The notes beneath the pieces are model-generated. The model did no database searches and was not told the DNA's origin. It worked only from the letters and a program-made list of their open reading frames with translations. Of a stretch of 64,000 nucleotides of DNA, positions 4,317-48,544 are shown piece after piece. The stretch spans positions 736,001-800,000 of the forward strand of contig CAXXHO010000005.1 of the NCBI GenBank assembly GCA_963667725.2, written 5' to 3'. This stretch comes from Treponemataceae bacterium (lineage in GTDB: Bacteria; Spirochaetota; Spirochaetia; Treponematales; Rectinemataceae). Position 1 is the stretch's first letter, and the number at the start of each line of letters is the position of its first letter. The position numbers were made by a program, and so were the translations under genes.

Positions 4317-4320
4317 ATGA

Positions 4321-4335
4321 TCCTGTTATCCTGTC
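4321..4335. repeat. Orphan right arm of the CAGGA hairpin repeat (R0)
   Basis: Exact TCCTGTTATCCTGTC; overlaps the epimerase TGA and lies 4 nt upstream of the kinase ATG. Confidence 0.75.
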
Positions 4336-5392: not shown

Positions 5393-6736
5393 CTATCTCC
5401 CGACGCCGATGTAGGCAAATCCCAGAGCCTCAGCCTGAGCGCGGTCGTAAATATTCCTGAAATCGAAAAGCACGGGCGTCTTCAGAAGGCGCTTTACCTT
5501 GGCAAGGTCCAGGTTCCGGAATTGGTTCCACTCCGTAAGGATGACGAGAGCGTCGGCATCCTTCATTGTGTCGTATTCTCCCGCGCAGTAGGTGACATGA
5601 TCATCGATAGCCTGAAGCCTCCAGGAAGCCTCTTTCATCGCCTCCGGATCGTAGGCTTTGATCCTGGCTCCCTTGGACACCAGGGCGGCAAGGATCGCGA
5701 GGGCTGGGGCTTCGCGCATGTCGTCCGTGTTGGGCTTGAAAGCAAGACCAAGGACAGCCAGCTTCTTCCCCTTCAATGACCCGAGCGCCGCTTCGATCTT
5801 GTCCACCATGCGCAGCTTTTGGGCTTCGTTCGCCAGGATCGTCGCTTCCACTACCTTCAGGGGGCTATCGTTCTTTCGCGCGATATCGGCGAGCGCCTTC
5901 GTGTCCTTAGGGAAACAGGAACCTCCGTAACCGGGACCAGGATGGAGGAATTTGGCCCCGATGCGGCCATCCTTCCCCATCGCCGTGGCGACGGCTTTGA
6001 CGTCGGCGCCCACCTTCTCGCAGAGATTCGCTATCTCGTTGATGAAGGTTATCTTGACCGCCAAAAAGGCGTTGGACGCGTACTTGATCATCTCGGCCGA
6101 CTCGAGATTGGTCTCGATGAAGGGCGTCTCGTTGAGATACAGCACCCGGTAGATCGCGCGCATCGCCTCGCGGGCCTTGTCCGACTCTATGCCGAGCACG
6201 ACCCTATCCGGATGCATGAAATCGTAGACCGCCGACCCTTCGCGAAGGAATTCGGGGTTGGACACGACATCGAAGTCATGCGAGAGCGCGCTAGAGGGGC
6301 TTTGGAGCGCCCGGGCGGCCAACTCTTCGGCGATCCACTTTTTGACAAGCCTTCCGGTACCGATGGGCACCGTGCTCTTGTCGACCACCACTCGATAGCT
6401 GTCTATCGTGCGGCCGATAGTCCGCGCGGCTTCCTCGACATAGCGAAGATCGGCAGAACCATCGTCCGAGGGGGGCGTTCCCACCGCTATGAATATAACT
6501 TCCGCCGCCTGGATAGCTTGGGACGCGTCGGTAGTGAAAGAAAGGCGTTCGGCGGCCACGTTCCGCGCCACCACATCGGAGAGCCCCGGCTCGAAGATGG
6601 GGATTTGTCCTGCCCGAAGGCTTTCGATTTTTTTCTCGTCGACGTCGACGCAGGTTACCGTGTTGCCGAAATCGGCCAGGCAGGCGCCCGACACGAGACC
6701 GACATAGCCGGTACCGATTACCGCGATTGATGCCAT
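5393..6736 (-). CDS. ugd: UDP-glucose 6-dehydrogenase
   Basis: GTGYVG, KSTVPIGT, SNPEFLREG, GYGGSCFPKD, GLAFKPNTDD. Confidence 0.95.
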   Translation of the reverse strand: MASIAVIGTGYVGLVSGACLADFGNTVTCVDVDEKKIESLRAGQIPIFEPGLSDVVARNVAAERLSFTTDASQAIQAAEVIFIAVGTPPSDDGSADLRYVEEAARTIGRTIDSYRVVVDKSTVPIGTGRLVKKWIAEELAARALQSPSSALSHDFDVVSNPEFLREGSAVYDFMHPDRVVLGIESDKAREAMRAIYRVLYLNETPFIETNLESAEMIKYASNAFLAVKITFINEIANLCEKVGADVKAVATAMGKDGRIGAKFLHPGPGYGGSCFPKDTKALADIARKNDSPLKVVEATILANEAQKLRMVDKIEAALGSLKGKKLAVLGLAFKPNTDDMREAPALAILAALVSKGARIKAYDPEAMKEASWRLQAIDDHVTYCAGEYDTMKDADALVILTEWNQFRNLDLAKVKRLLKTPVLFDFRNIYDRAQAEALGFAYIGVGR

Positions 6737-6747
6737 AACACTTCCTA

Positions 6748-6807
6748 GACAGGATAACAGGAGGTGCGGGATTTACGGGTAAATCTTGGGGGTCCTGTTA
6801 TCCTGTC
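6748..6807. repeat. CAGGA hairpin repeat R1 (short, 60 bp)
   Basis: GACAGGATAACAGGA...TCCTGTTATCCTGTC with central region missing. Confidence 0.9.
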
Positions 6808-6951
6808 CTATTGTATAAAGTTTTAAAATGGGTTCTGCCCCATCTTGGTGTAGCGTAGTGTATTTTTTTGAATCAAAGTCAGTGGCTTTATGCGTTCTCC
6901 AGATAAAGGAGCCTCACATCATAGGCATTTTTATTATTAGAATTCTAAAGC

Positions 6952-6980
6952 TTGACAATACTTTGGCGAGCCCTTACCCT
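6952..6980 (+). promoter_or_regulatory. Putative sigma70 promoter upstream of structured leader and NYN gene
   Basis: TTGACA-N17-TACCCT. Confidence 0.5.
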
Positions 6981-6996
6981 TCATTGTATAAGAGCC

Positions 6997-7053
6997 AGAG
7001 CCATAAGGGTTTATATAAACATCGCAAGGTGTCCCTTTTGGCTCTATTTTTTT
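6997..7053 (+). ncRNA. Putative branched RNA structure upstream of NYN nuclease gene
   Basis: Outer stem AGAGCCATAAGGG / CCCTTTTGGCTCT enclosing GTTTATATAAAC and ACATCGCAAGGTGT hairpins, followed by a T7 run. Confidence 0.4.
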
Positions 7054-7057
7054 CCCT

Positions 7058-7527
7058 GATGAAGTCCACCGATGAAATATATCGTTCTCAAAGCCTGTAT
7101 CGGGAACAGTATTGGATCTCTCCAAAACACCCACATTCCTGGCAAATAAGCAAAGGCTCGAAGCCTTGAAACGAACCGATTATTTTGCCGTACGCGAAGG
7201 CCGCCTGACGATGAATGGATGGAAACTCAAGCAATCGGCAATTGGAAAAGCGGCGGCAGATCTCACCGATAGCGATTTTTCACCCGATATTCAGCAAAAA
7301 GGCGTGGACATGAAAATCGGTCTCGATATCGCTTGGATCAGTTTCAACAAGATCGCGGAAAGGATTCTTGTCATTACCGAGATTCCGATTTCATCCCCGC
7401 GATTAAATTGGCGCGACGTAATGGAATTCAAGTGTATCTTTTCACGCTCGCCCATGGAGTCACCCACGAACTCACCGAACATTCGGATCGATTAGTCGTC
7501 TCAGCGATTGATTCCCATTCGATTTGA
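7058..7527 (+). pseudogene. NYN/LabA-DUF88 (PIN-like) nuclease pseudogene
   Basis: QQKGVDMKIGLDIA, then after a 1-bp deletion near 7379 (G)DSDFIPAIKLARRNGIQVYL. N-terminus missing; a further break follows DEIYR. Confidence 0.85.
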
Positions 7528-7723
7528 TTCCATAGCTTCGCCCTCCAGCCGTGTGGCTGGATCCTCCAAAAACAGAGGTTTTGGCGCCGTTGCGCATCGA
7601 TCGCGGCCGGAACACGCTGATCGTTCGCTCTACGGTTCAATGTTCAGTCTTTGAACATTCTATGAACAGTATCGGCATGACGCAAGGGCTGGCACAAAAA
7701 TATTTTATGTTTCAGGTGGGGAG

Positions 7724-7838
7724 GACGGGATAACGGGATGAGCAGGATTTACGGGAAAAGGATTTAGGTAAAGAGATGAAATTTCGATTCTTTACCTTAA
7801 ATCTTACATGTCGATCCTGGAGGTCCTGTTATCCTGTC
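7724..7838. repeat. CAGGA hairpin repeat R2 (115 bp)
   Basis: GACGGGATAACGGGA...GCAGGATTTACGGG...GTCCTGTTATCCTGTC. Confidence 0.9.
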
Positions 7839-7930
7839 TAAAAATTTAAAAAATAGAGGTCTGACCCATTTTTCGACTTCTTTGCGCGAAAAATATGTAC
7901 ATTACTGAACAATAGTGTATAGTAAAGCCG

Positions 7931-8551
7931 ATGAAATTCAATGAAATCGTGCGATTATTCGCGGACCGGGCCTGGTTTGACTTCGAGATGGTCCACCTTA
8001 TCTCGGGCGAAGCCTCGGCCTGCGTGCATACGGAACTGTACCGATGGCGGGAATCGGGCAAACTGATCGAACTGCGGCGAGGCCTATTCGCCCTGGCCGA
8101 ACCCTGGAGACATTCGCCCGTCGATGGAGCCTGCCTGGCCGAAGCCCTGTACCCGCCCTCCTACCTATCGGGAACCTGGGCCCTGCGGCGCTATGGACTG
8201 CTTCGCGGCCCGGAAGGCGGCCGCCCGGAGTTCGACTCCGTGACGGCGCGCCCCGCCAAGACCTTCGAAAACACCTTTGGCCGCTATACCTACACCACCT
8301 TCCCCCGCGACCTCCTCTTTGGCACCAAAACCGAGCTGATTGACGGGAAAAGAGTACGGATAACCCTCCCCGAGAAAGCCCTTCTGGACTACTGGTTCAT
8401 CGAAGGCGGGGACTGGGACGAAGAGCGGATAAAGAACGCGGGATTGAGTCGCGGGCCGCTGGATAGGGATAGGATGGAGGCGATGGCGGCGCGCGCGGGC
8501 CGGCCACGGCTCGCGCGCGCCACCGGAGCCTTCCTGAGGGCAGCCCTATGA
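7931..8551 (+). CDS. AbiEi-like type IV antitoxin / transcriptional regulator
   Basis: N-terminal wHTH (GKLIELRRGLF), PSYLSGTWALRRYGL, PEKALLD; ATGA overlap with next gene. Confidence 0.75.
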   Translation: MKFNEIVRLFADRAWFDFEMVHLISGEASACVHTELYRWRESGKLIELRRGLFALAEPWRHSPVDGACLAEALYPPSYLSGTWALRRYGLLRGPEGGRPEFDSVTARPAKTFENTFGRYTYTTFPRDLLFGTKTELIDGKRVRITLPEKALLDYWFIEGGDWDEERIKNAGLSRGPLDRDRMEAMAARAGRPRLARATGAFLRAAL

Positions 8552-9024
8552 TACGAGAAGAAATCCTCGAGATAGCCGATAAAGCCGAAACGCCTGAAGA
8601 AAAACTTTGCGCGATACGAGCATGCATCCAAGCCGCGGCGCTCCGCTCGCTGCACGAACTGGGAGCCTTCGAAAAACTCTGCCTGACCGGAGAAAGCGCC
8701 CGCCACTTCGCCACCGGAACGCCAGACTACATAACCGACCTCGAATTCAGCCTCGTGGACAAGAAAGGTTACAAACCCGAACAGTGGCTCTTCGCGGTCA
8801 AGCGCCGCCTGCGCTTCATGGGACTCGATCCCCGCATCGCCTTCGCGAGGAAAGCATCCATCCACGCAGGCTGGGTGAAAGTGACCGGCCTCCTCGCCGA
8901 AGAAGTCGGCTTCAGGATCACCATCAATATCGCCCCGATAGAACCCGCGCTGTGCACCGTGAAACTCGTGGACATGGCGGGAGAGTATTTTGGCATTCGG
9001 TATGTAACTTCCTGTCGGTCCTGA
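8548..9024 (+). CDS. Degenerate, truncated AbiEii-like nucleotidyltransferase
   Basis: Coupled to AbiEi-like gene. LTGESAR...ITDLEFS aligns with the AbiEii GGTAL...SEDLDFS motif but is degenerate. Only 158 aa; stop lies in repeat arm R3. Confidence 0.6.
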   Translation: MIREEILEIADKAETPEEKLCAIRACIQAAALRSLHELGAFEKLCLTGESARHFATGTPDYITDLEFSLVDKKGYKPEQWLFAVKRRLRFMGLDPRIAFARKASIHAGWVKVTGLLAEEVGFRITINIAPIEPALCTVKLVDMAGEYFGIRYVTSCRS

Positions 9025-9042
9025 GGGTCCTGTTATCCTGTC
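9009..9042. repeat. Right arm only of CAGGA repeat (R3)
   Basis: TTCCTGTCGGTCCTGAGGGTCCTGTTATCCTGTC. Confidence 0.88.
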
Positions 9043-9063
9043 TTTATAGTTATTCCCTTAAGC

Positions 9064-9187
9064 GACAGGATAACAGGAGAAGCAGGATTTACGGAAGAAA
9101 GATTTAGGTAAAGAGAAGATAAGAAGGAAAGAGGATTCTTTAATAAAAGCTTATTCCTGTAGGTCCTGACGGTCCTGTTATCCTGTC
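9064..9187. repeat. CAGGA hairpin repeat R4 (124-bp subtype)
   Basis: Perfect 15-bp TIR; core AGAGAAGATAAGAAGGAAAGAGGATTCTTTAATAAAAGCTT. Confidence 0.95.
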
Positions 9188-9257
9188 TAAAAGTTAAAAA
9201 ACAGGGTTTGATCCCGAATCCGCGAAGTGGTGGCTTTGTGCCACCTTGTCTCGGACT

Positions 9258-10508
9258 TCAACCTAACAGGTAAGCGACATGCACAGCGGTTATGTTGTGC
9301 GCAATTTCTTTCGTATCGGGATCGTTTGAGAGAATGAAACTGTGAAGAAGGGGCTTGTCGAGAAAAGCGTCCAAACCTTTGAGATGACGCGCATCGACCG
9401 CGGCAACCCGAGAAGAAAGCTTTATTTCGAAAGCGAGATATCCCTGCGGCAACTCGATGAGGAGATCCACCTCCCGCCCATCCACCGTTCTCAAGTAGTA
9501 GAAACGCGCATCGGAAAAACTACAGCGTGCCTGCTTGTACAGTTCAGAGACAACAAGACTTTCAAACTCGAAACCCGTGAGACCGCCTCGCTTCCGCGCT
9601 ACCGCCTGTAAAACACCATTATCGAGACAATGGATCTTCGGAGCCTTGACCAGCCGCTTGTTTTCATTTCCGAACCAAGCGGGAAGAACAAGCGCCTGAT
9701 AACTCAACTCAAGATACCGAAGGTACCGTTGTACCGTTTTTACCGATACGCCTACCTCTCGCGCTATCGTTGAACTATTCAAAATCGTGCCCGTCTGCAA
9801 TGCTACATACTGCTGAAGCTTGACGAATGGCTCGAGGTCCCTGAACGAAGCCAGGTCCCTGACATCCCGTTCCAGATAGGTTCGGACATACTGCGTGAGC
9901 CAGTGAAAGCGATCCTCGTCGGAGAGGCTTGGATCGGTGAGCGCCGGATAGCCTCCGAACCGGATATAGTGATCCCAGGCTTTCTGTTTAATCGCCTGTC
10001 GCTTGTCGAAAAGAAAACTTGGCAGAAGAGGCGGAATAGTGTCGGGGGCAGAAAGACAGGCTTGAAAAATGGAATCTGGCACAGGATCATCCCATCCTCC
10101 GGTTTCGAGCTCAGGGACGGTCAAGGGCAAGAGATCGATTATCGTGCAGCGTCCGGCAAGGCTTTCTTTCACCTTTTCGAGAAGCAACAACTGGCTTGAC
10201 CCTAAAAGCACGTAACGCGGTTCCTGCCATTGGTCATAGACTGATTTTACACTCTCAATGAGACGAGGCTCCTTCTGAACCTCATCCAAAATCGCCAAAG
10301 GATACAGCGTGTTCCACTGCGCGGCGGTTAACCGGGCATACTGGACACGAAGGACCGGATCCTCAATCGACAAATATTCATAGCCTGGGAAGAGCATACG
10401 CGCCAGGGTAGACTTGCCAGTCTGCCGGGCTCCCGTGAAGACCATTATCCGGCCACCGGGCTTTTGGGATTGCTCCCTGATATAGTCGGCTATCTTACGA
10501 TTCTTCAT
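9258..10508 (-). CDS. AAA+ ATPase (AAA_14) with C-terminal DUF4143-type PD-(D/E)XK domain, copy 1
   Basis: Walker A GARQTGKS, Walker B ILDEVQ, LGSS, GGYP, YLERD, EVDL...FEIK. Confidence 0.9.
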   Translation of the reverse strand: MKNRKIADYIREQSQKPGGRIMVFTGARQTGKSTLARMLFPGYEYLSIEDPVLRVQYARLTAAQWNTLYPLAILDEVQKEPRLIESVKSVYDQWQEPRYVLLGSSQLLLLEKVKESLAGRCTIIDLLPLTVPELETGGWDDPVPDSIFQACLSAPDTIPPLLPSFLFDKRQAIKQKAWDHYIRFGGYPALTDPSLSDEDRFHWLTQYVRTYLERDVRDLASFRDLEPFVKLQQYVALQTGTILNSSTIAREVGVSVKTVQRYLRYLELSYQALVLPAWFGNENKRLVKAPKIHCLDNGVLQAVARKRGGLTGFEFESLVVSELYKQARCSFSDARFYYLRTVDGREVDLLIELPQGYLAFEIKLSSRVAAVDARHLKGLDAFLDKPLLHSFILSNDPDTKEIAHNITAVHVAYLLG

Positions 10509-10568
10509 ACCAATAGTTTCGTATATTTCGGACTTGATGTCCAGTATATGGCGTATTTTTAGGATATA

Positions 10569-10693
10569 GACAGGATAACAAGATGGGGCAGGATTTACGG
10601 AAGAAGGATTTAGGTAAAGAGAAGATAAGAAGGAAAGGGGATTCTTTAATAAAAGCTTTTTCCTGTCGGTCCTGGGGGTCCTGTTATCCTGTC
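10569..10693. repeat. CAGGA hairpin repeat R5 (124-bp subtype)
   Basis: GACAGGATAACAAGA...GTCCTGTTATCCTGTC, same core as R4. Confidence 0.95.
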
Positions 10694-10697
10694 TTAT

Positions 10698-11906
10698 TTA
10701 CTCAAGACACAGCAGGAACTGCCTGATGTTCATATGACGTATGCCATTCCTGCTCCGATCCACCTCGTCCATCGTCACCACGTATTTTGGATAGTTGTCG
10801 GGAATCGTTTCCAGCACGGAAAATTCCCTTTCGATAGTGTCATCGCTTGCCAGAAGGTAGGCTACCTGCACGTACAGCTTTTCGTTTCCTTTTTTTGCCG
10901 AAAAATCCACCTCGGCTTGAGCGCTTTTCCCTATCGTCACTTCATAGCCATTCCTGAGCAGTTCCATATAGACGATATTTTCCAGGGTCTGATTGATATC
11001 TCTCTGGTTATTGCCGTAGAGGGCTTCGCGTATGCCATGATCGGTCAGGTAGATTTTTTCCTGAAAACTCAAAAGTCTCTTGCCGATCAAATCCTCTCTG
11101 GGCACGAGGTGAAGCAGGCAGGCTTCCTGGCAATAACGGATATAGTTATAGAGCGTTTCGCTCGACAGACTTCGTTTTTCGTTTTTAAGGTACTGAACTA
11201 CCGAAGCGGACGAGAAGGTGTTCCCGACATTGGCGATGAAAAATAGTATCAGGCGCTTCAGCTGGTCGATATCGCGAATTCTGTTTCGCTGCGCGATGTC
11301 CTTGAGGATTATGGAATCGAAGATGTCGCTTAAATATTGCCGCGCCGATGCCGCGTCGAAAGAATGCCGATATAGAAATGGCATTCCGCCCATGACAAGA
11401 TAGCGCGTAAAGACATCAGCCTGGTCTATGGGCATCTTTTCTTCCTCGTAACAGTCCAGTACCTCCCTGAAGGAAAAAGGATATACCTTGATCTCGACAT
11501 ACCTGCCCCCCAGGTAGGTGGCCAACTCGCCGGACAGCATCTTCGCGTTTGAGCCGGTGATGAATATGTCGATATCGAAATCGATCATGCAGGAGTTGAC
11601 GAGCTTTTCCCACCCTTCAAGCTCCTGGACCTCATCCAGGAACAGATATAGCTTCCCTTTTTTGCCTTCCGCCGATGCTTTGATATGGGAATAGGTCAAA
11701 TCGCGGCTTCCAACGTAAGGCTCGACATTGGATTCAAAATTAATGGAAAGCATCCGCGACGGGTCTATACCTTTTTGCAAAAGGTCTTGCCGAATGAGTT
11801 CCAGCAAGACGGTTTTGCCGCATCGTCGCATCCCCGTAAGCACTTTTACGACAGGGGTGTCGATAAAGGGACGAATTTTCTTCAGGTAGGTTTCTCTTCG
11901 TATCAT
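10698..11906 (-). CDS. AAA_14/DUF4143-type ATPase, copy 2
   Basis: Start re-called at MIRRETY. GMRRCGKT, FLDEVQ, TGSNA, GGMP, LENIVY, EVDF...YVQV. Confidence 0.9.
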   Translation of the reverse strand: MIRRETYLKKIRPFIDTPVVKVLTGMRRCGKTVLLELIRQDLLQKGIDPSRMLSINFESNVEPYVGSRDLTYSHIKASAEGKKGKLYLFLDEVQELEGWEKLVNSCMIDFDIDIFITGSNAKMLSGELATYLGGRYVEIKVYPFSFREVLDCYEEEKMPIDQADVFTRYLVMGGMPFLYRHSFDAASARQYLSDIFDSIILKDIAQRNRIRDIDQLKRLILFFIANVGNTFSSASVVQYLKNEKRSLSSETLYNYIRYCQEACLLHLVPREDLIGKRLLSFQEKIYLTDHGIREALYGNNQRDINQTLENIVYMELLRNGYEVTIGKSAQAEVDFSAKKGNEKLYVQVAYLLASDDTIEREFSVLETIPDNYPKYVVTMDEVDRSRNGIRHMNIRQFLLCLE

Positions 11907-11913
11907 ATGGTGA

Positions 11914-11942
11914 AGTATAAACCGACTATATCGAAAATGCAA
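11914..11942 (-). promoter_or_regulatory. Sigma70 promoter, probably leaderless transcript
   Basis: TTGCAT-N17-TATACT-N7-ATG. Confidence 0.65.
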
Positions 11943-11983
11943 TGGGATTAATGATATAGATTTCGTTATATCGAAATATATAG

Positions 11984-12143
11984 GACAGGATAACAGGATG
12001 GGGCAGGATTTACGGGAGAAGGATTTAGGTAACAAGATATACGCTCTTTTCTTATCTCTTTACCATATCGTATTCTTTCTTCTCTTCTCTTCTCTTTCCC
12101 AAAAACTCTTTCCTGTTAGTCCTGCTGGTCCTGTTATCCTGTC
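11984..12143. repeat. CAGGA hairpin repeat R6 (160-bp subtype)
   Basis: Perfect 15-bp TIR; long CT-rich core; near-identical to R7. Confidence 0.95.
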
Positions 12144-12154
12144 CTATTTTATGT

Positions 12155-13336
12155 TTAATAAGCAAAGCCCAAAAGCCATAGAGGAATTGCCTTCCCGGCG
12201 GGATAGTCCATATCGTCGCGGATTACGAAGTCGGCCTGTTTAAAATTTTTTGAATGTCCGCCCACCTCTATCCTGTATTTCCTCGTCCCTCCAGAACCTG
12301 CCGCCTCGGAGATTACGAAATCGGCTTCCGTTTCATTCCTTGCGGCTTCGACCTTCCATCCCGCGCCGGAGCAGAGCGCGGTAACCAAGGCTTCGCGCGC
12401 GGTTCCCCTGTCCCCATTCAGCGCCGAATACAAGGCCGGATCGGAGAAGAACATTTTCTCGCCGACAGATTTCGCCTTCGTGTCGTTTTCGACGCGAACG
12501 ATACGGAGCACCCCCACGGATTCCATGACCTCCAGCAGCTGATAAAGCTTGTCGCTGCCGACACCCCAGTCGGCGCAGAGCGATCTCACCTGGAGACGCG
12601 GAATGGCTGCGTTTCCCAGCGTGCCCACAATCGCCTTCATAAGGCGGAGATTGCCATCGGTGATCCCCGGGAGGAAAAAAGGCACATCCGAATAGAGTGT
12701 CTTATCCAGAACGGCAAGGAGTCGATCCTGAAAGTCTCCCTCGCCGTAGAAAGGCCGGGTGCCTATGCGACGGTACTTCTGGAAAGCGTCGAGCAGGGCT
12801 GGCGTCGGCGCCAATGGAAGCGCTTGAGCTGGCGAAAAAGGATCTAGTCGTGGATAAAGAATCCCTGTCTCCAAAGACAGGAATTCCCTGAATGAAAGAA
12901 GAGGCATCTGGATCGGCAGGTAGCGACGGGAAAGATCTCCCACGGCGCTTCGCAGCACGAGCGAAGAAGAATCGCTAATCCAGATCGAATGCGAAGGGAA
13001 GTCATCATACAATGCCTTGACGTGAAGGCTCCACTCTTTCGCGAAATGGACTTCATCGATGATGACGCCTTCATAGCCGATTAAAAAAATGCCTTTAACG
13101 AGATCATAGAGGCTAATCCCCGCGATGATGGGATTGTCCGCCGAAAGGTAGAGAATTCGCTTTTTATTGATATGGTACAGCAGAAACGTGGTTTTACCGA
13201 CGCCTCTGGGGCCCGTGAGCACCACCGCGCGGGGAAGCGGGGGCTGCTCCACCGTGAAGGGTCGCATCACCGCAGGCATGGCCGCGTGGCGCCGCTGCAT
13301 GGCTGTCTCCAAGTCCACGACATATTTATTGTCCAT
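12155..13336 (-). CDS. AAA_14-type ATPase with C-terminal nuclease-like domain, copy 3
   Basis: Start re-called at MDNKY. GPRGVGKT, IIDEVH, EADF...IEVGG, IPLWLLGF. Confidence 0.88.
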   Translation of the reverse strand: MDNKYVVDLETAMQRRHAAMPAVMRPFTVEQPPLPRAVVLTGPRGVGKTTFLLYHINKKRILYLSADNPIIAGISLYDLVKGIFLIGYEGVIIDEVHFAKEWSLHVKALYDDFPSHSIWISDSSSLVLRSAVGDLSRRYLPIQMPLLSFREFLSLETGILYPRLDPFSPAQALPLAPTPALLDAFQKYRRIGTRPFYGEGDFQDRLLAVLDKTLYSDVPFFLPGITDGNLRLMKAIVGTLGNAAIPRLQVRSLCADWGVGSDKLYQLLEVMESVGVLRIVRVENDTKAKSVGEKMFFSDPALYSALNGDRGTAREALVTALCSGAGWKVEAARNETEADFVISEAAGSGGTRKYRIEVGGHSKNFKQADFVIRDDMDYPAGKAIPLWLLGFAY

Positions 13337-13342
13337 AGCTGA

Positions 13343-13371
13343 AGCATACAGCAATATCGTTCTTACGACAA
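13343..13371 (-). promoter_or_regulatory. Sigma70 promoter, probably leaderless transcript
   Basis: TTGTCG-N17-TATGCT-N6-ATG. Confidence 0.55.
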
Positions 13372-13417
13372 GTACATATTATAATATTTGTACCTGCTGT
13401 GGATACGTTACCAATAA

Positions 13418-13577
13418 GACAGGATAACAGGATGGGGCAGGATTTACGGGAGAAGGATTTAGGTAAAAAGATATACGCTCTTTTCTTATCTCTTTACCAT
13501 ATCGTATTCTTTCTTCTCTTCTCTTCTCTTTACCAAAAACTCTTTCCTGTAGGTCCTGCTGGTCCTGTTATCCTGTC
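13418..13577. repeat. CAGGA hairpin repeat R7 (160-bp subtype)
   Basis: About 4 mismatches to R6 by eye. Confidence 0.95.
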
Positions 13578-14425
13578 TTTATTGCTATTCCCCGAATACC
13601 CGATTCGACCAGGTAAAGAGGTAGGGAAATGAGCGTGAAGGGCTTGCTCGATTTGCCCGCGATCGCGGTACTGGTAGATAGAATGGAAGGCAAGTCCGTA
13701 TTGAACCTGAGGGCTAGGTCAACCTCTTTTTCCTGGACGAACATATGAAGCGACCTGAGACGCCCCGTGGCTCCGGCTTTTACTTCCACGGGCAGAACTC
13801 GGTTTTCTTTTTGAATGAGAAAATCCACCTCCGCCGTTGAACCTTTGGCGGGGCGATTCCAATAGTAAAGATGAGGTTCGGCATACCCAGGCTGAGCATA
13901 CAGAAGATGCTGACCGATAAACTGCTCCGCGAAAGCCCCGGAGTTCACCATCGCGAAGTTTTCCGCCTGGCCTAGCTCTTGGGGTTTCAGTCCTGATAAC
14001 GACAAGGCCAATCCGATGTCCAGAAACAGCAGCTTGAAAGAACTTGCTTCCGCTTCCGCGCCCAAGGGAAGTCCGTTGCCGTGGCTGTGCATGACTGGAT
14101 AGATTAGTCGGGCTTTTTGCAGCAGATCCAGGCATTCTTTTATTTCCCGTGACTTTACTTGGCGGTTCAACGCCGAGTATTTGATCGTTTTTCCAAGTTG
14201 ACCGGGTATTTTTATAAAAAGATCCTGCGGAAGCCCGATATTGGCCCTTTTCTTGTACTTGCCGAAGTCGAGAAAAAAAGTCTGCAGAATGGCGTTTTGC
14301 TCCTGCCACGCCCTTGAAACATCCAGACCCGACTCGATATAGTCCTTCAACTCGGCCTTACCGGGGGTTTCGTCAAAGTTGGTCTCAACGTAGGTTTCGA
14401 ATTCCCGCGCGGCGAATATGCGCAA
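13568..14425 (-). pseudogene. AAA_14/DUF4143-type ATPase, copy 4, deleted
   Basis: Close paralogue of copy 6 but lacks the Walker A N-terminus and about 140 internal residues including Walker B; retains EVDF...PVEVK; stop codon lies inside R7. Confidence 0.85.
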
Positions 14426-14478
14426 TGGCTATTGTATACTAAATTTTTGTCCACTTTTGTATATTTTTATAGGTTTAG

Positions 14479-14602
14479 GACAGGATAACAGGAGAAGCAG
14501 GATTTACGGGAAATGGATTTAGGTAAAGAGAAGATAAGAAGGAAAGAGGATTCTTTACTAAAAGCTTTTTCCTGTAGATCCTGAGGGTCCTGTTATCCTG
14601 TC
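14479..14602. repeat. CAGGA hairpin repeat R8 (124-bp subtype)
   Basis: Perfect 15-bp TIR; overlapped by the 3' end of copy 5. Confidence 0.95.
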
Positions 14603-15889
14603 GAGTATAGAAAGCGCATAGAGAGGAATGTTTGTCAGCCAGCGCTCTTCACGGTACGCGGAGAGCGAGGTTCTGAAGCAGCGTGGAGGAGAAAACTTTT
14701 CATTATAGACCCGAAGGCTCTTGGCCTGCAGGTTTTCGGCAGCCTTCACCTCAAGTGGATAGATGGAATCTTGGCCTTGGATCAGGAAGTCGACCTCAGC
14801 CCTCGAAGTGTCGCTGGACCAGTATGAAGCGTCCATTTCTTCCATAAGGCGTAATTCCTGCGCGACATATTGTTCGGTCAGCGCTCCCTTGAATTCTTCA
14901 AAAAGAGCGTTCCCATGCAATACCGTTTGTATCGGCAGGCCAGAATGTGCCGCCAACAGCCCGATATCAAGCATGTAAAGCTTGAACGCGTTGAGTTCCT
15001 GATATGCCTTAAGAGGGAGCCCCGGTTTCGATACTCTAAAGGTTTTGCGCGATAATCCCGCATCGCAAAGCCACTCGATCGCGCTTTCGTATTCTCTTGC
15101 CCTGGCGCCTTCACGAATGAGACCGTACATGAACTTTTTCTGCTCCCGCGCCAATTGAGCCGGCAAGGAATTCCACACCGCCCGAATTCGAGGAACCGTG
15201 TCCGATTTCGCATATTTGGAAAAATCCCGTTCATAAGCTTCAAGCAGTTCTTTCTGGAAGGTACGAACCTGGCCAAGATCCTTCGTCGCCACAAAGGTTG
15301 CCACGCTTTCCGGCATGCCGCCAACGCAATAGTAATATCGCAGGAATTCGATCAGTTTCTCCCTGAACGCATCGATCATCGGCCAATCACTTGATGAAAC
15401 GAGATCCGCCAGCGCGGATTCGCCAATGGCTTTTAAAAATTCCAAGAAAGAAAGAGGATAAAGGTTTAAAAAGTCGACTTTGCCCACGGGAAAAGAATTC
15501 TCCGCATGCAACGAGATTCCCAAGAGCGATCCTGCCGCCACAAGATGATACTGGGGAGCATTCTCATAAAAATACTTGAGCGACGTGAGCGCCTTTGGGT
15601 TTTCCTGGACTTCATCGAAGATGATGAGCGTCTTTTCGGGTTCAATAGGCAGGCCGGTCTCAATACGCAAGCCCATGAGTAGACGCTCAGGATCCACGTT
15701 GGATGAAAAAAGCGTCGCCATTCGCTCATTGGACTCAAAATTTATATAGGCGACGTTTTGGTATGCCCTTTTGCCGAATTCTTTCAGCAGCCATGTTTTG
15801 CCGACTTGGCGGGCACCGTTTAGAACGAGAGGCTTTCTGCGCTTATCGCTTCGCCACGCCAGCAAGTCAGCAAGGGCTTTTCTTTCCAT
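14558..15889 (-). CDS. AAA_14/DUF4143-type ATPase, copy 5
   Basis: Start re-called at MERKAL. GARQVGKT, IFDEVQ, AAGSLLG, GGMPE, EVDF...LEVK. Last residues DRITGPSGSTGKSF are encoded by R8. Confidence 0.92.
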   Translation of the reverse strand: MERKALADLLAWRSDKRRKPLVLNGARQVGKTWLLKEFGKRAYQNVAYINFESNERMATLFSSNVDPERLLMGLRIETGLPIEPEKTLIIFDEVQENPKALTSLKYFYENAPQYHLVAAGSLLGISLHAENSFPVGKVDFLNLYPLSFLEFLKAIGESALADLVSSSDWPMIDAFREKLIEFLRYYYCVGGMPESVATFVATKDLGQVRTFQKELLEAYERDFSKYAKSDTVPRIRAVWNSLPAQLAREQKKFMYGLIREGARAREYESAIEWLCDAGLSRKTFRVSKPGLPLKAYQELNAFKLYMLDIGLLAAHSGLPIQTVLHGNALFEEFKGALTEQYVAQELRLMEEMDASYWSSDTSRAEVDFLIQGQDSIYPLEVKAAENLQAKSLRVYNEKFSPPRCFRTSLSAYREERWLTNIPLYALSILDRITGPSGSTGKSF

Positions 15890-15896
15890 AGATACA

Positions 15897-15925
15897 AGTG
15901 TATTCGTTGTCATCACAAAAGTGAA
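15897..15925 (-). promoter_or_regulatory. Sigma70 promoter, probably leaderless transcript
   Basis: TTCACT-N17-TACACT-N7-ATG. Confidence 0.55.
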
Positions 15926-15985
15926 GCCTGTTTTGTGCAGTATAATCACATAAGTCTTACAAGTTTTGTGTTTGTCTCGCTAAGA

Positions 15986-16102
15986 GACAGGATAACAGGA
16001 TGGGGCAGGATTAACGGGAGAAGGATTTAGGTAAAGAGAAGAGAATTCAATTCTTTACCTATAGCTTTTTCCTGTCGGTCCTGAAGGTCCTGTTATCCTG
16101 TC
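15986..16102. repeat. CAGGA hairpin repeat R9 (117 bp)
   Basis: Perfect 15-bp TIR; core resembles R2. Confidence 0.95.
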
Positions 16103-16108
16103 CAAAAG

Positions 16109-17519
16109 TTAACAAATGGGGTCCGACCCCGGCCGCAGGAGCCTTTCGGCTTGTTCCACGAGGTATAAGGGGAGTGAGAGAAGCTTAAAGGGCTGAGGTT
16201 TTTTCCCCGCGATCGATGTTGTGGACTCAAGGCATGAAGGCAGATCGTCATTGAAGCGCAAACCCAAGGAAGCGTTCTTCTCCTGTATGAACACCTGGAG
16301 CGACCTGAGCCGGCCCGTCTTGCCTGCCTTGACTTCGACAGGAACGGCAAGGCTTCCCGCCTGGATGAGATAATCCACCTCGGCGGTGGAACCCTTGCTC
16401 TGTCGGTTCCAGTAAAAAAGGGAAGGCTCGTGATAGAACCCATTCCGATACAGAAGATGCTGGCCGATGAACTGCTCCGCCATGGCGCCGGAATTGACAA
16501 GCGTCATATCCTTATCACGCGGTAAGTCGGCCGCGTTCAGACCGAGAAAAGACGCCAGGAGACCAATATCCAGAAAAACCAGCTTAAAGGAGGAAGGATG
16601 GATTTCGGCGCCAAGGGGAATCCCATTTCCATCTGAATGAAAAACCCTAAACACGAGGCGCGCCTTCTCTAATAGATCAAGACTCTCTCTCACCTGGATC
16701 GACCGAGCGAGAGGATTGAGACTCGAGTATTTCGCCGTCTTGCCAATCGTCGCGGGAATGTTCTTGAAGACCGCCTGCAGCATCGGTACATCGACCTTTC
16801 GCTTATATTTGCTGAAATCGGCATAATAGGTGAGCAAAAGGCTACTCTGCGCGCGTGCCGCGGCTTTCATGTCGAGATCCGATTCTATGAAAGCCTTGAC
16901 AACCCCCGGCAAGCCCCCTACCAGGAAATATTCCCTCAAGAAGGCTCGCGCCTTGGCATGAAGCGCTTCGGGCAGGCTTTGAGAAATTCGATACATGGAA
17001 AGATACTCACGCAACTGTTCCTGCCCGCGAGCCAGGAGAAATTCCTCGAAACTCATTGGCCCCAGATACATGAACTCGATTCTTCCGACGGGAACGGAGT
17101 ATTCCGGCGCGCCGAGAGAGAAATCCAAGAGGGAGCCAGCGGCGATAACATGGAGTTCCGGCATCTTTTCGTAAAAATAGCGGAGCTTGGCCAGTACGGC
17201 GGGCGCTCCTTGAATTTCATCGAGGAAGAGAAGGGTTTCCCCCGGGACAATCTTCTTTGAAGCATCGGCTTCGATAAGCCGCACGATGGTCCGGACATCA
17301 GGCTCGTCGAAAAGGCTCGCCTTCTCGGGATTTTCATCGAAATTGATCTCCACGATCGAATCGAATGCCTGTCGCGCGAAAATCCGCACGAGTTCCGTTT
17401 TTCCGACCTGCCGCGCGCCGCGTATGACGAGAGGTTTTCTGTCTCAGGCGCCAGGCGCCAGGTTTTCTGTCGGGTCTCAGGCGCCACTGCGCGAGGAAAT
17501 CGAGAGCAAAGCGTTTCAT
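16109..17519 (-). pseudogene. AAA_14/DUF4143-type ATPase, copy 6, frameshifted
   Basis: MKRFALDFLAQWRLRPDRKP joins LVIRGARQVGKT once a 28-bp imperfect local duplication (17432-17459) is removed, restoring 460 aa with FLDEIQ, GGLP, EVDY...PVEVK. Confidence 0.88.
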
Positions 17520-17526
17520 AATGTTG

Positions 17527-17555
17527 ATTATACAATATTTACCTAGTATTTTCAA
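17527..17555 (-). promoter_or_regulatory. Sigma70 promoter, probably leaderless transcript
   Basis: TTGAAA-N17-TATAAT-N7-ATG. Confidence 0.75.
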
Positions 17556-17588
17556 CAATTATTGCTATTATTATAGGATATAATAGCA

Positions 17589-17712
17589 GACAGGATAACA
17601 GGAGAAGCAGGATTTACGGAAATAGGATTTAGGTAAAGAGAAGATAAGAAAGAAAGGGAATTCTTTAATAAATGCTTTTTCCTGTAGGTCCTGGGGGTCC
17701 TGTTATCCTGTC
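17589..17712. repeat. CAGGA hairpin repeat R10 (124-bp subtype)
   Basis: Perfect 15-bp TIR; ends 6 bp from the GxxExxY stop codon. Confidence 0.95.
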
Positions 17713-17718
17713 CTATCG

Positions 17719-18111
17719 CTAGGGCGCCTTCTTGGGCGCGGGGGCATAGTCCCTATACTTGCGTTTGAAGTTTATGTCCTGGGGCCCGAAGTTGATGATG
17801 AGGCCCGTGGGCGTATTGGTGGCTTTTAAGTAATTCACGAGCTGTATCTCATGGACTTTATTGATGGCTTCCACAGCCTTGAGTTCCAGGATGACCTGAC
17901 CATTAACGATAACGTCGGCAAAGAAAAAACCGATCATCGATCCTTCGTAATACACCTCGATCGGCGCTTCGATGATGAAGGGCAGCTTGGCTTTATGCAG
18001 TTCTATGGCCATCGCCTGCTTATAGACCGATTCCAGGAAGCCCGCGCCGAGGGTGTTGTATACCGTAAAGGCACAACCGATGATTTTTTCCGTGAGGGGA
18101 TCTTCCACCAT
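17719..18111 (-). CDS. GxxExxY protein (PD-(D/E)XK nuclease superfamily)
   Basis: 130 aa; LGAGFLESVY motif, ADVIV...ILELKA, QLVNYLKAT...GLIINFG. Confidence 0.95.
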   Translation of the reverse strand: MVEDPLTEKIIGCAFTVYNTLGAGFLESVYKQAMAIELHKAKLPFIIEAPIEVYYEGSMIGFFFADVIVNGQVILELKAVEAINKVHEIQLVNYLKATNTPTGLIINFGPQDINFKRKYRDYAPAPKKAP

Positions 18112-18152
18112 ACCTTTATCGCGCGCGGGGTGGGGGCTTTTGATTCAATGTG

Positions 18153-18276
18153 GACAGGATAACGGGATGAGCAGGATTTACGGAAGAAGGATTTAGGTAA
18201 AGAGAAGATAAGAAGGAAAGACGATTTTTTAATAAAAGCTTTTTCCTGTAGGTCCTGAAGGTCCTGGTATCCTGTC
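18153..18276. repeat. CAGGA hairpin repeat R11 (124-bp subtype)
   Basis: GACAGGATAACGGGA...GTCCTGGTATCCTGTC. Confidence 0.93.
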
Positions 18277-18308
18277 CAATTATATCATTTTTCGGTATTA
18301 TCCATGTA

Positions 18309-19601
18309 ATGCCCACTATTCAAACCTATACGGCTATCATCATTGGAGCGGGGCCGTCGGGCCTCTTCGCCGCCATTCGACTCGCCGAAGCCATCGGCGG
18401 CGGCGAGGGCATCCTCGTTCTCGAGCGCCGCGAGAAACCCGCCCGCAAGCTGCTTCTCTCAGGGTCAGGCCAGTGCAACCTCACCCACGCGGGGGAAATA
18501 GCCGACTTCCTCGGCCACTACGGCGGCGGACCGAAGGCCGAATCGGCCGCACGCTTCCTAAAACCCGCCCTCTACGCCTTCACTAACGAGGAACTCCTCG
18601 CCTGGTTTGGCGCCCGGGGCATCGAATTCGAGACCGAGGATTCGGGCAAAGTCTTCCCCGCCGACCGCCGCGCCACTTCCGTTCTCAAGATTCTCCAGGA
18701 CGAAGCCTATCGCCTGGGCGTGCGCATAGCGGCGAACAGCCGCGTCAGCGGCATAAGCGTCTCAGAGGGCTTTCTCGTACGGGTGGAAGCGGTGACCGCC
18801 GATGCTCCGGCTGCTCCGGAGCCCGCCGAATATCGCGCCCCGATTGTCCTGATCGCCACGGGAGGCTTGTCCTACCCCAAAACCGGCAGCACGGGTGACG
18901 GCTACGCGCTCGCGGCCTCCTTGGGACATCGCGTCGTCCCGCCCAGGCCGGCTCTCGCGCCCGTTTACGTCCGGAACTTCGCCCTCAATCCTCTCGCTGG
19001 GCTTTCCTTCCATGACGCGGGCCTTTCGGTGCTTCGCGAGGGCAAGCGGGTCTTTTCCGCTGAAGGCGACCTTCTCATAACTCACGAAGGCCTCTCGGGA
19101 CCTCTCATCCTCGACGCGTCGCGCCATATCGCGCCGGGCGACAGTCTCGAGGTCAATTTTGTCGATGTTGCTATCGAGGAATTCCGGAACCGCCTGGACG
19201 CCGAGCTCAAAGCCAATCCCCGGCGCCTGGTCCGCACGGCCCTCGCCGATCTCGGCCTGGCCAAAAACATGGCTGAACTATTCTGCGACCTTTCGGGCAT
19301 AACCAAGGAAGAAACCGCGGCGGCCCTTCCCCGCGCCAAGAGGGAAGCGCTCTGCCGCTTCGCCTGCGCCCATCCCTTCTTCGTGGCTCGCCTCGGCACG
19401 CTTGAGGTGGCCATGGTCACCGCGGGAGGCGTCGATCTCGCCGAGGTGAATCCCGGCAGCATGGAGTCGCGCATCGTCCCCGGCCTCTTCTTCGCGGGCG
19501 AGGTCCTCGACATCGACGGCGACACTGGCGGCTATAATCTCCAGGCCGCCTTCTCGACCGGCTCCCTCGCGGCCAAGAGTATGGCTATGAGAAAGAATTA
19601 G
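18309..19601 (+). CDS. HI0933/YhiN-family NAD(P)/FAD-dependent oxidoreductase
   Basis: IIGAGPSG, KLLLSGSGQCNLT, ATGGLSYPKTGSTGDGY, GEVLDIDGDTGGYNLQAA. Confidence 0.93.
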   Translation: MPTIQTYTAIIIGAGPSGLFAAIRLAEAIGGGEGILVLERREKPARKLLLSGSGQCNLTHAGEIADFLGHYGGGPKAESAARFLKPALYAFTNEELLAWFGARGIEFETEDSGKVFPADRRATSVLKILQDEAYRLGVRIAANSRVSGISVSEGFLVRVEAVTADAPAAPEPAEYRAPIVLIATGGLSYPKTGSTGDGYALAASLGHRVVPPRPALAPVYVRNFALNPLAGLSFHDAGLSVLREGKRVFSAEGDLLITHEGLSGPLILDASRHIAPGDSLEVNFVDVAIEEFRNRLDAELKANPRRLVRTALADLGLAKNMAELFCDLSGITKEETAAALPRAKREALCRFACAHPFFVARLGTLEVAMVTAGGVDLAEVNPGSMESRIVPGLFFAGEVLDIDGDTGGYNLQAAFSTGSLAAKSMAMRKN

Positions 19602-19748
19602 ACATGATCACATGATTGATCATGATCGACGGGAAAGAAGAATAGGTTAAAGAAAGATCTTCTATTTCTTTTTTCTCTTTCTCTCTTTCTTTCTTTCTTT
19701 AATAAAATCTTTTTCCTGTAGATCCTCCCCAGTCCCGTAGATCCTGTC
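19601..19748. repeat. Divergent repeat copy R12
   Basis: GACATGATCACATGA...purine then pyrimidine core...CCTGTAGATCC...GATCCTGTC. Confidence 0.8.
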
Positions 19749-19781
19749 TAAATTAGGCGCCGCAACGCGTCGATCATTAGG

Positions 19782-19825
19782 CGAAAAGTTAAAAATTGGG
19801 GTCTGACCCCTTTTTTTAACTTTCG
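19782..19825. repeat. GGGGTCTGACCCC palindrome (second repeat family); possible terminator
   Basis: CGAAAAGTTAAAAA-TTGGGGTCTGACCCC-TTTTTTTAACTTTCG; related copies near 6817-6843, 7840-7873, 9189-9216, 16104-16130. Confidence 0.7.
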
Positions 19826-20850
19826 TAGTAGCGGGCGAGGTCGTAGGGGGGGTAGATGCCCTTGTCGGTGACGATGCCGTCGCAGAGTTTGGGCGGGGTG
19901 ATGTCGAAGGCGGGGTAGAAGCCGTGCACGCCCCGCATGGCGGTGCGGACGCCCATGGCTTCGAGGACGTCGTTCTCGTCGCGCTCTTCGATTTTCACCG
20001 TGTCGATGGTGGGGTGCTGGCGGTTGGGCGAGCCCGTGCAGAAGTAGGGTATGCCCCAATAGCGCGCCGCGAGGGCGATTTGGAAGGTGCCGACCTTGTT
20101 GACGATGTGGCCGTCCATGCAGATGACGTCGGCGGCCGAGGTGAAGACGTCGACGTGTTTGGCTTTCATGGTGTAGCCGGGCATGTTGTCGGTGATGACG
20201 GTGACGTCGAAGTCCATGTCGCGCACGACGGATGCGGTGAGGCGGGCGCCTTGGAAGTAGGGTCTGGTCTCGGGGCAGATGACTTTGATGGTTTTACCTC
20301 GGCTCCGGCATTCGCGCAGCATCATGCCGACGATGGTTTCGGCGAAGCACTGGGTCATGACGGTGCCGTTGTCGGGGAACTGGTCGACGAGGTATCTCGC
20401 GCCAGCGGCGCTGCGGGCGTAGCGTTTGTTCACCGCGTCGATGGTGTGCTCGAAGACGGCTTTGTCGGGCGCCTTGCCGGCGGCTTTCGCCTCGATGGCC
20501 ACCTTGGCGCAGGCTTCCGTGATCGTGGCCATTTTTTCGGCCGTGGTGGGGCGGGCGTGGGAGATTTCAAAGGATGCCTTGGCGATGCGCACGGCAAAAT
20601 CGCTCGCGCCTTCTAAGGCGATCTGGCGCGCGGCGAGGGCCATGCCCATGCCGGCGGCCACGTAGGGGCCCCCCGACTGGGTGACCATGGCTTTGATGGC
20701 CAAGATGACGTCCGCGTAGGTTCTGCAGGTGACATATTCGATCCTGGCGGGATAGACGCGGCGGTCGAGGATGCGCACCGTTTCGCCGTCGTACCAGGCG
20801 ACGTTTTCGTACATGAGCATGAAGGCGAGGTCTTTGTCCTGTCGTTCCAC
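19816..20850 (-). CDS. mtnA: S-methyl-5-thioribose-1-phosphate / 5-deoxyribose-1-phosphate isomerase
   Basis: GTG start after AAGGAG. LDRR, ARPT, ETRPYFQGARLTA, NKVGT, YPAFDITP. Confidence 0.88.
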   Translation of the reverse strand: MERQDKDLAFMLMYENVAWYDGETVRILDRRVYPARIEYVTCRTYADVILAIKAMVTQSGGPYVAAGMGMALAARQIALEGASDFAVRIAKASFEISHARPTTAEKMATITEACAKVAIEAKAAGKAPDKAVFEHTIDAVNKRYARSAAGARYLVDQFPDNGTVMTQCFAETIVGMMLRECRSRGKTIKVICPETRPYFQGARLTASVVRDMDFDVTVITDNMPGYTMKAKHVDVFTSAADVICMDGHIVNKVGTFQIALAARYWGIPYFCTGSPNRQHPTIDTVKIEERDENDVLEAMGVRTAMRGVHGFYPAFDITPPKLCDGIVTDKGIYPPYDLARYYES

Positions 20851-20900
20851 GGTTGTCTCCTTGTCGAGAAATTCTATGCTATGGCTTTGTTTATTTTTTT

Positions 20901-21059
20901 GACAGGATAACAGGAAAGACCAGGATTGACAGGAAAGAGAAGAAAAGATTTTGGGTAAAGAAAGAGAGAAGAAAAAATTGGCTGTGTCCATGTAATACTA
21001 AATCTTCTCTTTACCCTATTCATAGTCTTGTTCATCCTCTCTTGCCTGTTGATCCTGTC
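20901..21059. repeat. Divergent repeat copy R13, inside the operon
   Basis: GACAGGATAACAGGAAAGACCAGGATTGACAGGA...CCTGTTGATCCTGTC. Confidence 0.85.
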
Positions 21060-21074
21060 AAAGTGTCGGCGCCC

Positions 21075-48366: not shown

Positions 48367-48544
48367 GACAGGACTTACATGAGGGGGAATGATTTACGGG
48401 AGAAGATTTTAGGTAGAGAAAGAAACCGTATTTCTTTGTGCGCTTTATTTATTCTCTTTTTTTCTTTTTTTTCTTCTTTTCTTCTTCTCTTTCTTTACCC
48501 AAAATTCTTTCCTGTAGATCCTTATATATCCTGTAGATCCTGTA
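48367..48544. repeat. Divergent repeat copy R15, between convergent genes
   Basis: GACAGGACTTACATGA...GATTTACGGGAGAAGATTTTAGGTA...CCTGTAGATCC...CCTGTAGATCCTGT. Confidence 0.85.

Follow-up and report, generated by a model that had tools for sequence, protein, structure and literature searches.

What is the long hairpin repeat that stands between the genes of an array in a Treponemataceae genome, and does it take part in moving those genes? The array lies at positions 6748-18276 of a 64,000-nt stretch of DNA (hereafter the window), which corresponds to positions 736001-800000 of contig C5 in the source genome, G000 (GenBank assembly GCA_963667725.2; eight contigs, 4.2 Mb); C4, C6 and similar labels denote other contigs of the same genome. 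A sequence-only reading had described the array as a platform for gene capture or shuffling in which the repeat acts as the junction. Our comparisons support that description, as the gene units differ at three loci and the breakpoints lie in or at hairpins. We give a probability of roughly 55% to the reading that the hairpin is a mobile element serving as a portable recombination junction for defence-gene cassettes, with units exchanged by recombination between its copies. The comparisons drew on genome G001, genome G002 of the same genus, genomes G005 and G021 from outside that genus, metagenome contigs (L numbers), and the sequencing runs X1 (the source run), X5, X6 and X11.

Repeat search and alignment bore out the layout read from the letters: ten full, co-oriented, imperfect palindromes of 60-160 nt and one right-arm half copy alternate with nine gene units, between ugd (5393-6736) on the left and an HI0933-like gene (18309-19601) on the right, the two flanks that had been named. 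All of these copies are on the plus strand. The first is a short, 60-nt form with both ends present and the centre missing (6748-6807; fold -18.2 kcal/mol, z -9.7). Unit 1 (6828-7733, plus strand), previously called NYN, proves to be a frameshifted NYN-like remnant with a sub-threshold Pfam match (PF01936, E 0.0078); the other unit identities stand. At the frameshift, near 7378, contigs of X5, X6 and X11 have an extra G that the source run X1 lacks, which indicates a real frameshift in the source strain rather than a consensus error. A 115-nt hairpin (7724-7838) leads to unit 2, a plus-strand pair composed of an AbiEi-like gene (2a, 7931-8551; AbiEi, 3e-31) and a truncated AbiEii-like gene (2b, 8548-9024; 2.2e-9, covering profile positions 10-115 of 270). 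The half copy follows at approximately 9007-9042. Taken with the 15 nt behind it, this copy is similar to the right end and flank of the hairpin at 13418-13577 (90% identity to 13544-13592), a likeness that marks it as the relic of a lost unit. A 124-nt hairpin (9064-9187) then opens the minus-strand part of the array, which holds the six ATPase-type genes A1 to A6.

These six are unit 3 (A1, 9258-10508), unit 4 (A2, 10698-12035), unit 5 (A3, 12155-13354), unit 6 (A4, 13568-14425), unit 7 (A5, 14558-15949) and unit 8 (A6, 16109-17389). After A1 comes a hairpin of 125 nt (10569-10693), after A2 and A3 a long form of 160 nt each (11984-12143 and 13418-13577), after A4 one of 124 nt (14479-14602), after A5 one of 117 nt (15986-16102) and after A6 one of 124 nt (17589-17712). 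Unit 9 is a minus-strand PDDEXK_3 (GxxExxY-type) nuclease-fold gene (17719-18111), and the last array hairpin (18153-18276) adjoins the HI0933 side. Four of the six ATPases have both the AAA_14 and DUF4143 domains; A3 has AAA_14 only, and A4 is truncated to its DUF4143 part. A6 is short at its N-terminus, and full-length versions occur elsewhere (473 aa in a metagenome contig, 470 aa in G021). All six match PADLOC models for PDC-S01, with E values from 6e-18 to 1e-182 (606 bits for A5), and different sub-models are hit by different genes. Their amino-acid identity is 20-35%, except for one pair at 56%. The hairpins between them are 77-97% identical, and tandem duplication as the origin of the array was rejected on that comparison. 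PDC-S01 (COG1373; AAA_14 plus DUF4143) is described in PMC12988326 as a single-gene defence candidate, unvalidated, and the fourth most common in prokaryotes; the description given there mentions no cassette arrays or bounding repeats. DUF4143 is presented in PMC3424549 as a restriction-endonuclease-fold domain of unassigned function.

The hairpin has near-invariant ends, GACAGGATAACAGGA (left) and TCCTGTTATCCTGTC (right), with the variant pair GACAGGAYGACAGGA...TCCTGTCRTCCTGTC in array copies on C4 and C6. Family-wide, its length is 115-170 nt, and each arm contains three CAGGA boxes. An end stem of 15 bp is followed by a 4x4 internal loop and then by a second stem. Among 58 distinct full-length hairpins, the core GACAGGA-NN-ACAGGA is invariant, and end-stem positions 8 and 9 covary, appearing as T-A or A-T, C-G or G-C, and T.G. 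The nine full-length copies of the window have a median nucleotide identity of 84%. Folded as single-stranded DNA, the hairpins are far more stable than shuffled sequences (z -5.8 to -9.7). The two strands fold differently: in most array copies the minimum-free-energy fold has 3-13 G.T pairs on the top strand and 0-1 on the bottom, and the energies summed over 36 copies are -929 kcal/mol for the top and -811 kcal/mol for the bottom (-29.6 and -24.2 kcal/mol for the copy at 14479-14602). This better, G.T-rich fold of the top strand argues that the hairpin functions as a single strand. Relative to most cargo the favoured strand is antisense, and this speaks against a part in cargo mRNAs. The strand that matters would then be the top one.

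A profile built from the ten window copies finds about 43 hairpins in the genome, clustered as arrays on C5, C4 and C6. The 17-nt end motif, scanned at up to two mismatches, occurs 21 times in the window against an expectation of 0.01 from shuffled sequence. Repeat density is far from uniform along the genome, since 22 of the 63 end-motif matches fall inside one 20-kb bin, that of the window array. Over the 43 copies, the hairpins lie between -49 and +32 nt from gene 3' ends and 36-82 nt or more from 5' ends, with the right arm toward the gene 3' end in 27. AT-rich, TATA-like stretches adjoin the left end. In nhmmer searches all full copies of an array have the same best-scoring orientation; this holds for 10 copies each in the window and the main C4 array, and for six each in G005:C49 and L164. 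Eight of 24 genomes of the same family have the element, as against 0 of 16 genomes drawn from the order's other families. A degenerate 17-mer scan of the genome collection gave, among the matches listed, mostly chance hits and only a hint of Spirochaetia and Treponemataceae records.

The order of the units is not an assembly artefact, a possibility that was rejected because a separately filed 147-kb metagenome contig, from a sample possibly shared with the genome's, reproduces the order over window positions 8497-22000, with an identity of about 98%. That contig differs at one hairpin, having a 117-nt copy in place of the 160-nt copy at 13418-13577. Short-read contigs from X1 confirm each unit from hairpin to hairpin and do not extend to unit order. 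Contigs from X1, X5, X6 and X11 often stop within repeats, so that joints inside repeats are often ambiguous, and such joints were left out as evidence of order.

Comparison with relatives, which the sequence-only reading had set out beforehand, found units absent, replaced or reordered in a second array, in same-genus genomes, in metagenome contigs and in a public sequencing run; none of them kept the window's gene content and order while lacking the repeats. Public runs that contain 20-76% of the array's words also suggest that natural variants exist, and no RNA run was listed among those holding the array. The main array of C4 (65233-77744) has 11 copies of the hairpin, one of them a right-arm fragment (73729-73775). 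Its surroundings, C4:64000-103500, are 92-99% identical in reverse orientation to C6:2300-33000. The two arrays have in common both flanks and two units, namely an ATPase gene (94% identity, including both bounding hairpins) and HicB. Four further units lie between the common ones on C4 only. Homology blocks between the two start and stop at hairpin ends, and the hairpins at the joints are mosaic, such that no single crossover point emerges. The cargo of the C4 and C6 arrays also includes AAA_14/DUF4143 genes, two PRiA4_ORF3 genes and unknowns. The window pair A5-A6 reappears on C4 as A6'-A5' (82-85% nucleotide identity); both arrays close with a PDDEXK_3-like unit, and both contain the two hairpin size classes. 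The idea that a gene is co-inherited with its own 3' hairpin found no support, since the short hairpins of the window all resemble the C4 hairpin at 67713 to much the same degree.

The ugd-HI0933 interval itself is variable. G002 has two versions of it. One contains the AbiE pair, 12 kb of repeat-less genes, a single hairpin and HI0933; in the other (G002:C3), AbiE is joined to HI0933 and TCCTGTC is the only hairpin remnant. In the metagenome contig L164, two different ATPase units and part of A2 precede A3, which leads directly to a hairpin of the 17589 type, PDDEXK_3 and HI0933; A4 to A6 are missing from it, and the junction lies within the left arm of the hairpin. A1 is missing from X11, with a joint from 9001 to 10564 and a depth of 0 over 9403-10536. 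In L168, 2.4 kb with a DUF4143 gene and an unknown gene sits exactly between the last base of hairpin 18153-18276 (18276/18277) and the HI0933 flank, at the insertion point CCTGTC^CAATTA, with no second hairpin. A further observation concerns the AbiEii-like gene, which ends at one and the same point, TTCGGTA (window 8996-9003), in the window, G002:C6, G002:C3 and X11, and is followed by different DNA in each; this makes the point a recurrent junction, itself no hairpin end.

The same kind of variation is seen in a second slot, which lies at C5:676.7 kb and is flanked by a glycosyltransferase gene and a gene for 617 aa. In the source genome its content is a minus-strand DUF4143 gene. At this place G002:C11 has another DUF4143 gene, on the plus strand, G002:C6 has an AbiEi/AbiEii pair, and G001 has a 204-aa open reading frame (ORF) and no hairpins. 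In the three versions that have hairpins the cargo starts at the same hairpin, and in two it ends at the same left-arm copy. The G002:C11 cargo of this slot is 87% identical to a unit in G005, and G021 has, between hairpins, a partial gene resembling A2 at 84% nucleotide identity. The core HI0933 protein, by comparison, is only 64% identical in amino-acid sequence between the source genome and G005. Cassettes at 84-87% nucleotide identity beside a core protein at that level argue that cassettes cross genera.

Hairpins also come and go singly. The interval marked out from the letters does not enclose every copy, as weaker ones lie outside it. A solitary diverged hairpin on the plus strand (19601-19748) sits at the 3' end of the HI0933-like gene and is followed by a 41-nt repetitive extragenic palindrome (REP) at about 19780-19820. 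Both are absent from the two G002 versions and from X11, where a joint from 19587 to 19824 has 24 other letters in place of 236 nt. A solitary copy in the opposite orientation (20901-21059, minus strand), beside an IF-2B-family gene, is absent in G001 and is skipped in X11 (joint 20849 to 21082). The junction between the epimerase gene and ugd exists in three states: empty in the window, with a hairpin only in X5 and X6, and with a hairpin plus a DUF2335 gene in L167. The remaining copies of the window are two solitary diverged hairpins on the plus strand (48367-48543 and 49625-49758) and a lone right-arm end (4319-4335, plus strand) between the galactokinase and epimerase genes. Because it occurs also in solitary form beside core genes, the hairpin is mobile in its own right, beyond its role as a cassette boundary.

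Half copies occur elsewhere in the genome as well. At C3:100268 and C5:254714 (L176 and L182), lone right arms adjoin genes of type I restriction-modification systems, namely HsdM and a fragment of HsdR, so half hairpins also mark the edges of other defence genes.

How might the units move? The mosaic hairpins, the size swap at one position in arrays that are 98% identical, the presence of both size classes in both arrays, the half copies and the variable junctions together point to homology-driven crossovers with no fixed cut site. Crossovers that look scattered in this way suit exchange by homology no less than they suit an enzyme acting at one site. We propose that the hairpin would be a lineage-specific, non-autonomous mobile element whose top strand folds as single-stranded nucleic acid. 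It would spread alone to sites directly behind stop codons and, once in place, would act as a junction for the gain, loss, replacement and reordering of single-gene units within and between arrays and genomes. The units so moved would be mostly PDC-S01 ATPase-nucleases, plus AbiE, HicB, PIN and PDDEXK_3 genes. Exchange partners could be hairpins already resident, those of other arrays or those brought in by incoming DNA, and breakage of the long palindrome may aid the exchange. Under this proposal no recombinase is encoded in cis, the integron integrase/attC pathway would be uninvolved, and shuffling could proceed without a dedicated enzyme; the initial spread of the hairpin would still need one.

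Several points weigh against this proposal. A sequence-specific protein would account better than plain homologous recombination for the invariant CAGGA boxes, the strict co-orientation of array copies and the base-exact insertion in L168, so that a dedicated protein stays a contender. In L167, a duplication of about 9 nt flanks the inserted hairpin and gene, which hints at a transposase-type event, although 21 other copies have no consistent duplication. Neither a transposase nor a recombinase was found among 21 ORFs beside seven lone arms in the source genome, the only genome covered by that search, and no autonomous element with the same ends was found there. Homologs of A1 and A5 occur in other genomes without nearby hairpins, so the hairpin is not obligatory for these genes. 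The G.T asymmetry is in part a matter of common descent, and independent events are fewer than copies. Finally, the C4 and C6 arrays may represent two strains in one assembly, for which contamination stands at 6.26%, rather than two loci of one cell.

A stronger version of the cassette reading, which we hold only tentatively and consider possible, well short of probable, is that the arrays belong to an undescribed, IntI-independent cassette system in which the 115-170-nt single-stranded DNA hairpin with its triple CAGGA boxes is the attachment site, a trans-acting recombinase or a cargo ATPase-nuclease is the enzyme, and defence genes are stacked and exchanged in Treponema-like spirochaetes.

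The source genome does have integrons. The sequence-only reading had noted an array with no integrase; this is true of the window, while three integron integrases above the TIGR02249 cut-off lie elsewhere in the genome (C7:37069-37989, C1:34408-35331 and C5:550880-551806). They occupy long open frames of 431-480 aa, beside canonical attC arrays of about 135 nt with R' = GTTAGRY. A covariance model, R1, was made from 19 attC sites of these three integrons, and it tests likeness to the local attC class only. It recovers 30 sites in 60 kb around the integrons, at 95-155 bits, and at E values up to 10 has no match in the window or in the six hairpin-array loci L019-L022, L164 and L166. The repeat's lack of the attC consensus, as originally read, is thus upheld: the pair AAC and GTT occurs in just 19 of the 58 distinct full-length hairpins (AAC in 24, GTT in 30), and identity with attC was rejected on these two grounds. 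The claim that the window lacked recombinases and RAYT genes needs a correction. No tyrosine recombinase was found in the window, C4 or C6, and no serine recombinase in the source genome, but the window does contain a broken IS200-type Y1 transposase gene (about 1802-2160, minus strand) whose Pfam match is interrupted by stop codons.

A divergent second class of attC, with the array as a cluster of attC sites lacking integrase (CALIN) served in trans by one of the three integrases, which have an extra N-terminal domain, would fit the layout. Long imperfect palindromes stand between single genes, often of defence or toxin-antitoxin type, whose stop codons come 4-12 nt from the repeat. The end stem, internal loop and second stem loosely parallel the R box, unpaired spacer and L box; nine of the ten window copies read AAC...GTT; and the strand that folds better lies antisense to most of the cargo, like the attC bottom strand. 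Against it, the end stem is 15 bp rather than 7, C4 and C6 copies read GAC...GTC, and the nearest integrase is about 190 kb from the window, with none on C4 or C6. Integrases were found in 16 of 24 genomes of the family, and they occur in 11 relatives without the hairpin; none turned up in G002, G014 and G021 (92-97% complete), which are three of the five relatives rich in hairpins. We consider this alternative very doubtful. An origin in the cargo itself is also quite unlikely, if marginally less so. Here the PDC-S01 ATPase-nucleases (AAA+, winged helix, PD-(D/E)XK fold) would be selfish genes that cut or bind hairpin or cruciform repeats and are copied in by repair, in the manner of homing, while other small genes hitch-hike. 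AAA_14/DUF4143 genes do account for roughly one half of the units, or more, in each array seen (six of nine in the window), 13 of the 20 DUF4143 genes of the source genome abut a hairpin, and DUF4143 has the restriction-endonuclease fold reported in PMC3424549. A cut hairpin is homologous on both sides to a hairpin-gene-hairpin donor, and its repair could give the alternating pattern. Yet many array copies are truncated, among them A3, A4, A6 and pieces on C4 and C6; at 20-35% identity, the proteins have diverged too far for one common sequence-specific target; and some hairpin-bounded units or slots hold only AbiE, HicB, PIN, DUF2335, GGDEF or sugar genes, as where a MASE3-GGDEF gene of the source genome is bracketed by two copies. 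PDC-S01 is moreover unvalidated in the account of PMC12988326.

A further alternative takes the repeat for a routine expression element (terminator, insulator, RNA-stability hairpin or operator, for example) that travels with acquired genes, the variation being normal island turnover; we regard it as unlikely, though somewhat less so than the two just discussed. The placement behind stop codons and ahead of the next start would suit it, as would the TATA-like stretches at the left end, and the CAGGA boxes could be binding sites of a regulator. Set against this, the better-folding, G.T-rich strand is antisense to most cargo; terminator-like sites number 14 against 14.0 expected and promoter-like sites 8 against 10.2, showing no enrichment; and no Rfam family reaches its threshold, the best matches scoring 25-30 bits against gathering scores of 72-100. 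Breakpoints at hairpins at three loci, and solitary copies that come and go beside core genes, are not predicted for a passive spacer. Movement of the long hairpin by a RAYT/REP system was rejected. The RAYT-like Y1 genes of the source genome (C5:694837-695658 and C4:25150-25899) are flanked by a different palindrome of 40 nt, and Y1 does not track the hairpin across relatives, Y1 genes not being found in the hairpin-rich G005, G012 and G021. With these alternatives weighed, the mobile hairpin as a recombination junction remains the reading that we prefer.

To our knowledge, gene-cassette platforms are known almost only as integrons. Vibrio VCR arrays are integron arrays that resemble the layout of the window. 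The likeness to integron arrays and to CALINs (Cury et al. 2016, PMC4889954, where the term denotes a cluster of attC sites lacking an integrase) extends to co-oriented imperfect palindromes of about 120-160 nt that alternate with single, mostly promoter-poor accessory genes, to toxin-antitoxin and defence cargo, to gain, loss and reordering of units at repeats, and to the absence of an integrase nearby. The hairpin differs in that it is unrelated in sequence to the attC sites of its own genome, has its 15-bp end stem with CAGGA boxes, bounds cargo of mixed orientation and does not appear to follow the occurrence of IntI.

Other small palindromes offer a second point of reference. REP and REPIN elements with their RAYT, ERIC and Correia elements are extragenic imperfect palindromes that fold as single strands, number in the tens of copies and are lineage-specific; elements of the REP, ERIC and Correia type lie behind stop codons, are present or absent between close relatives and vary in internal length. 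The hairpin, in contrast, has few copies, in co-oriented arrays that bound swappable genes, an arrangement that we did not find described for those elements. The pdif sites are 28-bp XerC/XerD sites in alternating orientation, used by the host Xer system. The co-oriented hairpins of 115-170 nt stand apart from them in size and orientation. The pdif modules of Acinetobacter plasmids are nevertheless alike in being small toxin-antitoxin or accessory modules between short sites, shuffled across replicons with no module-encoded recombinase, as outlined in PMC6449649 and PMC13141974. In the literature consulted on DUF4143, COG1373, PDC-S01, Treponema integrons, CALIN/attC and dif modules, we found no description of hairpin-bounded DUF4143 arrays.

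A genome with three canonical integrons has a second, sequence-unrelated set of hairpin-bounded arrays, and the units of these arrays move from array to array as well as across strains and genera. Should a dedicated enzyme exist, the arrays would represent a new recombination system with a defined and directly testable DNA site. If none exists, a mobile palindrome alone can make a locus a shuffling platform for defence genes. Either way, the arrays give a concrete handle on the mobility of PDC-S01 (COG1373), a gene that PMC12988326 presents as very common and experimentally uncharacterised.

The 40-nt palindrome beside the RAYT-like genes, AAAAGTTAAAAA..GGGGTCAGACCCC..TTAACTTTT, has about 30 copies, mostly on C5 and C4, and its position on both sides of these genes is a classic REP/RAYT arrangement. 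Within the window it occurs at about 16103-16131 as well as behind the solitary hairpin at 19601-19748, with weaker look-alikes near 7839-7870 and 9188-9216. It is often found directly beside the right end of the long hairpin, and comparison with G002 shows one copy to be a clean insertion (GGCG^TAGTAG).

The cumulative GC skew of C5 reaches its minimum near 720 kb, just ahead of the window, which could mark a replication origin or reflect a local gene-orientation effect. On the question of a replication-strand bias, solitary hairpins sit on both strands.

Two observations concern L036 (G005:C49), in which a hairpin array is interleaved with polysaccharide genes. The sole R1 match outside the integrons lies there, at 8283-8385 (27.6 bits, E 2e-4), directly behind a PIN gene; it is not a hairpin, and may be an integron cassette lodged in the hairpin array. 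Positions 505-928 of the same contig and C5:705900-706323 share 424 nt of a DegT-type aminotransferase region at 95.8% identity across genera. This suggests a recent transfer of polysaccharide genes lying among hairpins.

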